A stretch of 64,000 bases of DNA, taken from positions 1 through 64,000 of the forward strand of contig JAPDJY010000006.1 in NCBI GenBank assembly GCA_029258835.1, written 5' to 3'. The position numbers and the translations under genes are program-made. The notes under the pieces are model-generated. The model was given only the letters and a program-made list of their open reading frames with translations. It ran no database searches and was not told where the DNA came from. The stretch comes from Thermoproteota archaeon (lineage in GTDB: Archaea; Asgardarchaeota; Jordiarchaeia; Jordiarchaeales; Freyrarchaeaceae). Positions 28,113 to 30,591 of this stretch are shown here, in pieces (position 1 is the first letter of the stretch; every line of letters starts with the position of its first letter).

Positions 28113-28367
28113 CATAACTCAGCGACCTTTTATTCACGATATAGTTCATTTCAGCATCAAAACAGGAATGCTAGGAAAGAAAACAGGAGGAAAGGGGGAA
28201 AATAGCTACTTAGCATTTAGTCCATTAACGACGCTGCCGGTCTACATCTTGTTCCTCCGCTACCCAGTATCGATTATATTTTTCCGTATTCGAAAATTGC
28301 CCTATGAAAAGGAGAGAAAAAATTAATTAGTTTAGATGGTTAGGTTAAACTTGCTGGTGTGGCCTGT

Positions 28368-28522
28368 GGGCGGGTAGTCTAGAGCTGGGTTGACTGGCGG
28401 AGAACTTGGTATGACACGATGGATTAAACAGGGTCCATCGCGTGATGCCGGCTTCGGGAGCCGGCGGTCCCGGGTTCGAAACGTGCACTGGATTGCACGC
28501 GAGACTCCTGGCCCGCCCACCA
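28368..28522 (+). tRNA. tRNA-Pro(CGG) with three introns (15/16: 28383-28404; 25/26: 28416-28446; 59/60: 28481-28505) and encoded CCA
   Basis: Spliced sequence GGGCGGG-UA-GUCUAGCUUGGUAUGAC-G-CCGGC-UU-CGG-GA-GCCGG-CGGUC-CCGGG-UUCGAAU-CCUGG-CCCGCCC-ACCA folds as a cloverleaf; BHB motifs at the junctions; TTAAA box about 23 nt upstream. Confidence 0.92.
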
Positions 28523-28765
28523 TATTTCTCTTAAGACCTTTTCCCTTAAGATTCCTTTGATTATACTTTATTCACTTTAGCTTGCAAACGGTGCATTTTT
28601 CCCGTTTCAAATGCTTTTTTGTTTGTTAGCAGTAAGCACGTGTTGCTTTTTTGGTCATTTAAAGGTAATATTTTTCACTTTGCATGTTACCTTTTTATTT
28701 TTAGTTTTTCTTGTATTTTCATGTCTTTACGTCTTTACGTGTTCGGTGTTGAGGTGGTGGTGTTA

Positions 28766-29371
28766 TTGAAGTTTCTAGCTCCGACGTGGGATGAAATATA
28801 TTTTCTTACGTTTAAAGTGGCTAGAATGATTTTAGAGGATGGTGTTAACTTCGATGTTATCGTTGGGATCGCTCGTGGCGGCTGGATTGTCGCCCGCATG
28901 ATGTCTGATCTGCTTTCAATTAAGAAGGTAGCCTCTATCACCGTGGAGTTCTACTCGGATATTGGGGAAAAAATGGAAGAACCCGTCGTTTCACAACCCA
29001 TATCAATCGACGTCCAAGCTAAGCGTGTGCTTTTATGCGACGACGTGGCTGATAGCGGTCATAGCCTGCGTGTGGCCATTAACCATCTGAAAGACAACGG
29101 AGTTACCAGTCTTAAAGTTGCTACCTTGCATCTAAAGCCGTGGAGTGTGGTTACCCCTGACTACTATGGGGAGGTTACGGATGCTTGGATAATTTACCCT
29201 TGGGAGCTTTTCGAAAGCGTGGAAAGCCTCTCTAGGAAGTTTGAAGCTAAAGGCTGGACGAGGGATGAGATCGAGCGCTTCCTTCTAAACATTCCAATTC
29301 CATTGAAATATTTAGATCCTTTACTTAAATGGAGAGAGATGTTCATGTTAGCATGGAGGGGTGGGAGGTGA
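28766..29371 (+). CDS. Type I (purine) phosphoribosyltransferase
   Basis: GIARGG, VLLCDDVADSGHSL, WIIYPWE. Confidence 0.9.
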   Translation: MKFLAPTWDEIYFLTFKVARMILEDGVNFDVIVGIARGGWIVARMMSDLLSIKKVASITVEFYSDIGEKMEEPVVSQPISIDVQAKRVLLCDDVADSGHSLRVAINHLKDNGVTSLKVATLHLKPWSVVTPDYYGEVTDAWIIYPWELFESVESLSRKFEAKGWTRDEIERFLLNIPIPLKYLDPLLKWREMFMLAWRGGR

Positions 29372-29943
29372 TCTTGGCTAGCTTGGTAGACGAGTTAAAA
29401 ATTGGAATATGTGGTATTAAGGCTGTATGTATCGACGTTGATGAGGCTCTGAGCACGGCTAGACGTGTTGAAACGTCGCTGGAGGTCACTGTTCAACTTT
29501 TTGACGCTTCGCTTGTTGCCACATGGGAGCACGTTTTCTTTAGCGCTTTAAATGCAGTTAAAGCATTTAATGATGGAAGGAAAATAGCTAGAACGCTTGG
29601 AATGGAGTGCCTCCTCCACATGTCTGGTCAGAGGCAAATAAACATCGCACTGAAAATGTTTGGTTTAAAGCCTAAAATTAGAGAGCTAGGAGCTTTGATC
29701 ATAAGTAAAAGTGAGAAACGCATTAAAAGTGCAATTCAAGAGCTTGTAAACCGCTTAGGAGGCGTAATGGAAGATAGCGTACTCGAGCTTAACTTAGAAA
29801 AGGCTGAGAGGGTAAAGGAAGCCTTCAAGGTAGGGGATGAAGAGCTCGCTGCAGTTAAAACGTCGAAGCGAGAAAACTCTCTTTTTGAAGCGTTGGTTAA
29901 GTGTTGCATTGAAAGAAGTGCCATAATGCTCCTAGAGTCATGA
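29368..29943 (+). CDS. cgi121: KEOPS subunit Cgi121
   Basis: QLFDA..VAT.EH, IARTLGMECLLHMSGQRQI..AL..FG. Confidence 0.88.
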   Translation: MILASLVDELKIGICGIKAVCIDVDEALSTARRVETSLEVTVQLFDASLVATWEHVFFSALNAVKAFNDGRKIARTLGMECLLHMSGQRQINIALKMFGLKPKIRELGALIISKSEKRIKSAIQELVNRLGGVMEDSVLELNLEKAERVKEAFKVGDEELAAVKTSKRENSLFEALVKCCIERSAIMLLES

Positions 29944-30591
29944 TTAACCTCTCTTTAACGGTTTTCCTAGAACCTTCTCTAAAGCCTCTAGTGAGATGGC
30001 GCCTTCCCTAACTATTAATGGTAGCTTTTTTGTTAGGTCCACAACCGTAGACGCTACTCCCTTCGTTCTCCCCCCATCAAGTATTAAGTCTAGTGATGAG
30101 CCTAGTTGGGCGGCAACTTGGTTGGCGTCGGCCGCTGGAGGGGCGCCAGAGATGTTCGCGCTCGTACCAGTAATTGCTCCCCCCACCTTCTCTGCTATTA
30201 ACTTGGGAACAGGGTGATTTGGAACCCTTAAACCTATGTTTTCCTTCCCTCCCGACACCTCTCTTGGTATAGGTGTACGTTGTTCGAGTATAATGGTCAA
30301 CGGTCCCGGCCAGAATTTTTCCGCTAAGGTGAGCGCTTCAGGAGTGAAGTAAGCGATTTTTTCAGCTACATTTAGACTGCATACTAAAATAGGTATCCCC
30401 TTCTCAATCGGTCTCCTTTTAGCTTTCAGTAGCTTTCTGACAGCTTTCTGACTGAATGGGTTTACTCCGAGGCCATAAAGCGTATCTGTAGGATATGCTA
30501 CGATGCCTCCCTTTCTTATTATCTCGGCTGCAAGCTCAGCCGCTTCAGCGAGTTTTCCCCGTTTAACCTTAACTATCTTCGCTTCAGTCAC
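29944..30591 (-). CDS. sua5: L-threonylcarbamoyladenylate synthase, short TsaC-type
   Basis: YPTDTLYGLG, KRRP, WPGPLT, RVP, TSANISG, ASTVVD; no C-terminal SUA5 domain. Confidence 0.92.
   Translation of the reverse strand: MTEAKIVKVKRGKLAEAAELAAEIIRKGGIVAYPTDTLYGLGVNPFSQKAVRKLLKAKRRPIEKGIPILVCSLNVAEKIAYFTPEALTLAEKFWPGPLTIILEQRTPIPREVSGGKENIGLRVPNHPVPKLIAEKVGGAITGTSANISGAPPAADANQVAAQLGSSLDLILDGGRTKGVASTVVDLTKKLPLIVREGAISLEALEKVLGKPLKRG

Follow-up and report, generated by a model that had tools for sequence, protein, structure and literature searches.

A proline tRNA gene interrupted by three introns at non-canonical positions in a genome placed in the Jordarchaeia

Gene anatomy and genomic context

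The window, by which we mean the whole 64-kb stretch of DNA analyzed here, carries a tRNA-Pro(CGG) gene with introns at tRNA positions 15/16, 25/26, and 59/60 (Table 1). The flanking genes encode methylene-H4MPT dehydrogenase, Ftr, AdoMet synthetase, a phosphoribosyltransferase, Cgi121, and Sua5. On the upstream side, AdoMet synthetase, Mtd, and Ftr represent methanogen-type C1 enzymes. Within 2 kb on the downstream side lie the genes for Cgi121, a KEOPS subunit, and Sua5, both belonging to the t6A tRNA-modification pathway. The assembly is a metagenome bin of 2.72 Mb that is 95% complete, with an estimated contamination of 6%. The AdoMet synthetase encoded beside the tRNA gene was 86-87% identical to its counterparts in two Jordarchaeales/Jordarchaeum genomes, and the next matches were from Jordarchaeia and Freyarchaeota. 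These matches point to an Asgard archaeon of the class Jordarchaeia as the host, and not to a member of the Thermoproteales; the placement uses this one marker, and kinship in the genome collection agrees with it. The Thermoproteales, with Thermofilum as the example, which an earlier note on this DNA had named as the main source of multi-intron tRNAs, are thus not the lineage of this genome.

Table 1. Location of the features discussed in the text. Positions are those of the window unless a locus or contig is named.
Feature	Position	Strand	Description
TATA-like box, A/T-rich	28316..28330	+	About 40 nt upstream of the mature 5' end; putative promoter, leader of about 15 nt
Open reading frame overlapping the gene	28332..28523	-	63 aa
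tRNA-Pro(CGG), whole gene	28368..28522	+	155 nt, four exons, three introns, encoded CCA
Exon 1	28368..28382	+	tRNA positions 1-15: 5' acceptor strand, U8, A9, 5' D-stem strand GUCU, A14, G15
Intron 1	28383..28404	+	22 nt, 15/16, D-loop; relaxed BHB (HBh'-like)
UUGAC in intron 1	28390..28394	+	Resembles UGAC of exon 2
Exon 2	28405..28415	+	11 nt, positions 16-25: remaining D-loop (G18 G19 A21), 3' D-stem strand UGAC
UGAC ending exon 2	28412..28415	+	
Intron 2	28416..28446	+	31 nt, 25/26; strict hBHBh'
UGAU ending intron 2	28443..28446	+	Resembles UGAC of exon 2
Exon 3	28447..28480	+	Positions 26-59: anticodon arm (CGG), variable loop, 5' T-stem strand, T-loop through A59
Intron 3	28481..28505	+	25 nt, 59/60, T-loop; strict hBHBh'
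Exon 4	28506..28522	+	Positions 60-73, then the encoded CCA end
T-rich tract	28525..28542	+	Directly after the CCA end; putative terminator, from sequence reading
Cgi121	29329..29943	+	KEOPS subunit
Sua5	29944..30591	-	
EndA alpha	L143:1210-1782 (C1)		190 aa
EndA beta paralogue	L144:862-1788 (G000:C6)		Both EndA domains
RtcB	G000:C1:78966-80273		
tRNA-Pro(UGG)	G000:C31:3295-3480	+	Five insertions
tRNA-Pro(GGG), probable	G000:C8:18238-18423, on the reverse-complemented contig	-	At least three insertions

Removal of the three introns yielded a 77-nt RNA that ARAGORN folded as tRNA-Pro(CGG). The fold shows an acceptor stem of 7 bp rich in G/C, the T-loop UUCGAAU, and an encoded CCA end, together with U8, A14, G18 G19, A21, U33, and A73. 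The canonical cloverleaf was thus restored by intron removal, and the 77-mer aligned over its full length with Asgard tRNA-Pro genes that are uninterrupted. Exon 1 was invariant in all five orthologues and identical or nearly identical to the corresponding part of the uninterrupted Asgard genes. The D-loop part of exon 2 belongs to a 9-nt D-loop with 17a, and this exon showed a single substitution among the orthologues (U17 to A); exon 4 was invariant except for a substitution of U60 in one of the five. Each of the four orthologous loci has a comparable TATA-like box (AAAATTTAATTA), similarly spaced from the gene.

ARAGORN reported no tRNA anywhere in the 64-kb window. Rfam reported no family at the gathering score, and no tRNA match even at E<=10 on a 500-nt slice of the locus. 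The expectation of the earlier note that standard scanners may miss this gene therefore holds for ARAGORN and for the Rfam tRNA model. A custom search was set up that looks for pairing acceptor stems and BHB-like jumps and accepts only parses yielding a cloverleaf; it did not start from the parse of that note. It returned this parse (tRNA-Pro(CGG); introns of 22, 31, and 25 nt at the three sites given above and none at 37/38) as its best solution, tied with a variant in which intron 1 measures 20 nt. The parse was thus borne out by the independent search, by the ARAGORN fold of the spliced RNA, and by the alignments described below. When the interior of the gene was shuffled with its dinucleotides preserved, none of 300 shuffles yielded any tRNA solution. 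Four metagenome runs, all consisting of DNA contigs, were compared with the locus. A 208-nt contig from a hydrothermal vent (run X2) spanned window positions 28306-28513 with zero differences; this run may be the source sample of the genome.

Splicing motifs, conservation, and intron boundaries

All three introns presented the motif in the orientation of the canonical archaeal intron, that is, in the order outer helix, 3'-site bulge, 4-bp central helix, 5'-site bulge, and inner intron hairpin. In the central helix, an exon strand pairs with the 3' portion of the intron, and the cut falls after the second bulge nucleotide. Taking 3-nt bulges that flank a 4-bp helix as the BHB criterion, introns 2 and 3 have strict hBHBh' motifs, and intron 1 has a relaxed HBh'-type motif. 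In intron 3, the central helix UUCG/CGAG forms all four pairs between the bulges AAA and ACU; the inner helix is 6 bp long, and the 5-bp T-stem serves as the outer helix. Intron 2 likewise forms all four central pairs (UAUG/CGUG) between the bulges ACA and AUG, with a 7-bp inner helix; in its 4-bp outer helix, D-loop bases pair with the 5' anticodon-stem strand. The central helix of intron 1 (GUCU/GGAG, bulges AGA and AAC) forms three of four pairs around a conserved G.G mismatch, with a 5-bp inner helix and one possible outer pair. This motif reading reproduced the helices and bulges given earlier for introns 2 and 3, as well as the description of intron 1 as relaxed by one G.G mismatch. Intron 1 is supported little by its motif alone and, since its BHB is relaxed, its exact cut sites rest on comparison with uninterrupted relatives and not on the motif.

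Marck and Grosjean are said to have described, in 2003, the canonical archaeal tRNA intron as lying at 37/38 with a strict hBHBh' motif. The introns studied here share with it the geometry (a 4-bp central helix, two 3-nt bulges, and a cut after the second bulge nucleotide) and the enzymes. Unlike it, none of them lies at 37/38, and each BHB forms at the cost of the mature D-stem, anticodon stem, or T-loop.

A DNA search revealed an orthologue of 157-158 nt in all four genomes of a sister genus in the same family, each with three introns at the same sites. The exons of these orthologues differ at few positions, and the introns have diverged in sequence and length. In the five-orthologue alignment, 94% of the cells in the nine proposed helices pair; when the 3' partner strand was slid by 1-3 columns, pairing fell to 36-55%. 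Seven pairs had changed on both sides, compared with 1.8 expected, and none of 500 shuffles reached seven, although such counts overstate the number of independent events because the set comprises only five related sequences from two genera. Two compensatory pairs were located in the inner helix of intron 1 and three in that of intron 2. In the central helix of intron 2, only the intron strand varies (CGUG, CAUG, CGUA, and CAUA), and it always pairs with the fixed exon strand UAUG. In the T-loop, exon position G57 has changed to A, and intron 3 shows the matching change of C to U. A global alignment to uninterrupted Asgard tRNA-Pro(CGG/UGG/GGG) genes, made without reference to any motif, contained exactly three insertions of 22, 31, and 25 nt. 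The 9-nt D-loop AGCUUGGUA was identical in this gene and in the uninterrupted Asgard tRNA-Pro genes, which sets intron 1 at 22 nt. None of the 80 loci around AdoMet synthetase homologues had an adjoining tRNA-Pro gene.

Two stretches inside the introns, UUGAC in intron 1 and UGAU at the end of intron 2, resemble the UGAC that ends exon 2 (Table 1), and such repeats could mislead boundary calls. A parse with one intron of about 52 nt that begins after the UGAC in intron 1 was also considered and rejected; it had no BHB at its 5' site, and the resulting D-loop lacked A21.

The evidence on the boundaries, on the integrity of the gene, and on the origin of the sequence bears on three other explanations of the locus. 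One is that the gene is real and at least one intron boundary differs, as with a 20-nt intron 1 (gene positions 17-36, leaving an 11-nt D-loop) or with intron 2 cut at 21/22, so that the D-stem would end in UGAU. The custom search scored the 20-nt intron equally, and the 31-nt gap can shift from one alignment to another, since intron 2 ends in UGAU, which resembles the end of exon 2. However, the 9-nt D-loop of the uninterrupted relatives is reproduced only by a 22-nt intron 1, and a strict BHB for intron 2 is formed only at 25/26. The four orthologues, moreover, keep UAUGAC at the end of exon 2 and vary at the 3' end of intron 2 (UGUA, UGCA, UAUA, and UAUG), so a cut at 21/22 would break their D-stem. 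The invariant exon end next to differing intron ends fixes the 25/26 boundary, and we regard a shifted boundary as very unlikely.

The locus could instead be a decaying pseudogene, a former tRNA gene that has accumulated insertions and yields no working tRNA; tRNA-Pro(UGG) could read CCG by wobble, so the CGG isoacceptor may be dispensable. The pattern of change speaks against decay to such a degree that we consider it extremely improbable: there are few exon differences over five genomes, substitutions and indels in the introns preserve the helices, all cloverleaf stems and conserved bases are intact, and both the TATA-like box and the CCA end are conserved. The gene is also the only CGG isoacceptor found, a blastn-short search of the genome having returned no second one, and CCG makes up 14 of the 88 proline codons in seven neighboring genes. 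There is next to no likelihood that the structure is a chance resemblance, an assembly artefact, or part of the minus-strand open reading frame. The sequence does come from a metagenome bin with some estimated contamination, and the reading frame does overlap the locus, but the failure of all 300 shuffles to give a solution and the recurrence of the same architecture in four other assemblies and one metagenome contig argue against chance and artefact. Length differences between the orthologues are not multiples of three and fall within hairpin loops, which does not fit a coding sequence.

Splicing enzymes and a model for maturation

Two PF01974 paralogues were found in the genome. The EndA alpha protein matched the catalytic alpha subunit of Aeropyrum pernix (3p1z_B) with an E-value of 4e-46, and it keeps the catalytic Tyr/His/Lys as well as the GPGIDHAP and SVRKKF segments. 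Its alignment with the A. pernix protein was ungapped through the Crenarchaea-specific loop and placed K45 opposite K44 of A. pernix, a residue whose role in the EndA loop has been described (PMC5829648). The beta paralogue has an Ala at the position of the catalytic His of Methanocaldococcus jannaschii EndA, as expected of a structural beta subunit. Its open frame covers 308 aa, and use of the first ATG would place about 110 aa rich in Ser/Thr/Pro N-terminal to the EndA domains, reflecting either a mis-set start or a real extension. An RtcB gene was identified with an E-value of 1.6e-182. Kaneta et al. described (alpha-beta)2 EndA with an L1 loop in Asgard archaea and linked it to a broad substrate range. 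Judged by its two paralogues, the EndA of this genome is predicted to form a complex of this (alpha-beta)2 type with the L1 loop. The earlier note had argued that a broad-specificity endonuclease would be needed and had suggested examining the endA subunit architecture; the genome encodes the appropriate type, an alpha subunit plus a non-catalytic beta subunit.

Taken together, we assign a probability of roughly 93% to the reading that the locus is a functional single-copy tRNA-Pro(CGG) gene of Jordarchaeia, transcribed as a precursor of about 170 nt whose three BHB introns are predicted to be spliced by EndA and RtcB to a 77-nt tRNA. The precursor would start about 15 nt upstream of G1, as suggested by the conserved TATA-like box. 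The introns in the D-loop, at the junction of D-stem and anticodon stem, and in the T-loop would each pair locally with exon bases to form a BHB. The (alpha-beta)2 EndA would then cut six times, after the second nucleotide of each 3-nt bulge, and RtcB would ligate the four exons, giving a 77-nt tRNA with its CCA end already in place. RNase P would trim the leader, and the 3' trailer would also be trimmed; since the CCA end is encoded, no CCA addition would be needed afterwards. Each BHB uses bases of mature tRNA helices or loops, so the precursor would have to refold after splicing.

The suggestion that the 11-nt exon between introns 1 and 2 imposes an order of splicing was not supported, as the BHBs of the two introns share at most one exon nucleotide (U17). 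The intron 1 hairpin was suppressed while intron 2 was present in this genome and one orthologue (two of the five), but not in the other three. In nearest-neighbor ensembles, the probability of the central BHB helix was near 0 for introns 1 and 2 and at most about 0.3 for intron 3. The folding model prefers symmetric internal loops and is therefore unsuited to the question of splicing order. A more far-reaching idea, which we hold to be rather unlikely, is that intron 1 is read only in a certain fold, for example after removal of intron 2, so that the order would be obligatory, and that the 15/16 and T-loop introns, which are common to the proline isoacceptors of the Jordi-/Freyrarchaeaceae, would be old and retained elements and not recent insertions.

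Interrupted tRNA genes in the genome and in other archaea

Across the whole genome, only 12 tRNA matches were obtained with Rfam, and ARAGORN made 23 calls, several of them with implausibly long introns (450-700 nt) and apparently spurious. ARAGORN and the Rfam tRNA model thus miss most tRNA genes of this genome, and automatic annotation would give a badly incomplete tRNA set. The custom search was applied to 3609 of 4281 candidate spans and required an encoded CCA end and at most four introns, so that it represents a partial census; it gave 17 confident tRNA genes (score >=16.5). Twelve of the 17 had at least two introns, which agrees, as far as an incomplete scan can tell, with the trait reported for Jordarchaeia that most tRNA genes have several introns. 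At least three introns were predicted in nine of the 17, namely Ala (GGC, UGC, and CGC), Leu (UAG), Arg (UCG), Lys (UUU), Ser (GGA), Ser (CGA, with four introns), and the tRNA-Pro(CGG) gene itself. The latter is therefore unexceptional within its own genome.

For tRNA-Pro(UGG) and tRNA-Pro(GGG), the custom scan gave only spurious solutions, and both genes were read by alignment to uninterrupted relatives. Relative to uninterrupted Asgard genes, tRNA-Pro(UGG), whose CCA end is not encoded, contains five insertions. Those at 15/16 and about 25/26 measure 16 nt and about 22 nt, a 15-nt insertion interrupts the anticodon at 34/35, and the remaining two occupy the variable region (21-28 nt) and 58/59 (28 nt). 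The probable tRNA-Pro(GGG) gene has at least three insertions (29, 54, and 22 nt), of which the 54-nt block may correspond to two adjacent introns, and its T-loop is uninterrupted. In one genome of the sister genus, the three introns of tRNA-Pro(UGG) occupy exactly the sites found in the tRNA-Pro(CGG) gene studied here; tRNA-Pro(UGG) of one Freyrarchaeaceae genome has the 15/16 and 59/60 sites in common, without 25/26. Among these proline tRNA genes, intron 1 is recognizably alike at its start (AGC) and end (GCGGnGAA); for introns 2 and 3, the likeness is confined to position.

According to published surveys, heavy interruption of tRNA genes is the norm in this group of archaea. Introns were reported in 92-95% of the tRNA genes of Atabeyarchaeia/Freyarchaeia, often several per gene and at non-canonical sites (Valentin-Alvarado et al., 2024; PMC11291895). 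Goswami et al. (2026; bioRxiv 10.64898/2026.10.13.758758) counted about 2.0 intervening sequences for each tRNA gene of Jordiarchaeaceae and as many as five in one gene. They also reported that tRNAscan-SE misses introns in the D-arm, that canonical BHB motifs occur mostly in the T-arm, that EndA is present as two paralogues, and that different tRNA types have almost no introns in common. The tRNA-Pro(CGG) gene resembles the published Jordarchaeia tRNA genes in its lineage, the shortness and non-canonical positions of its introns (the median in the published set is about 22 nt), the two-paralogue EndA, the weaker D-arm motif missed by annotators, the canonical T-arm BHB, and the lack of intron copying between tRNA types. 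It shows no difference in kind from them. The gene is accordingly a clean example and not a discovery, and it adds no new kind of biology.

Multi-intron tRNA genes of the Thermoproteales, for which the record summarized in PMC4033280 from Sugahara et al. (2008) gives a maximum of three introns, are alike in carrying several BHB or relaxed introns at non-canonical sites and in being served by an (alpha-beta)2 EndA with a specific loop. The Thermoproteales belong to a different phylum, however, and many of their introns (28%) fall into families shared between tRNA types (bioRxiv 10.64898/2026.10.13.758758); in the outline given by Fujishima et al. (2010), these multi-intron tRNAs spread by intron transposition. 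Here, the lineage is Asgard, and a blastn-short search of the genome with the whole precursor as query located none of the three introns a second time; only intron 1 resembles an intron of other genes, the D-loop intron of the other proline isoacceptors.

The gene matters mainly for the annotation of tRNA sets. It also offers a test substrate, in that one short precursor combines two strict BHB motifs and one relaxed motif and has natural orthologues with compensatory changes; this combination suits it to measuring the substrate range of Asgard EndA, which the published surveys leave unmeasured.

A related tRNA-Pro(CGG)-like gene was observed in metagenome runs X1-X3, on contigs that overlap window positions 28443-28477 and come from a related organism that is more abundant in these samples. 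Like the present gene, it has a D-loop intron ending in GAGCGGAGAA, but its positions 22-60 are contiguous, with introns 2 and 3 absent. This relative provides a natural contrast of intron presence and absence.
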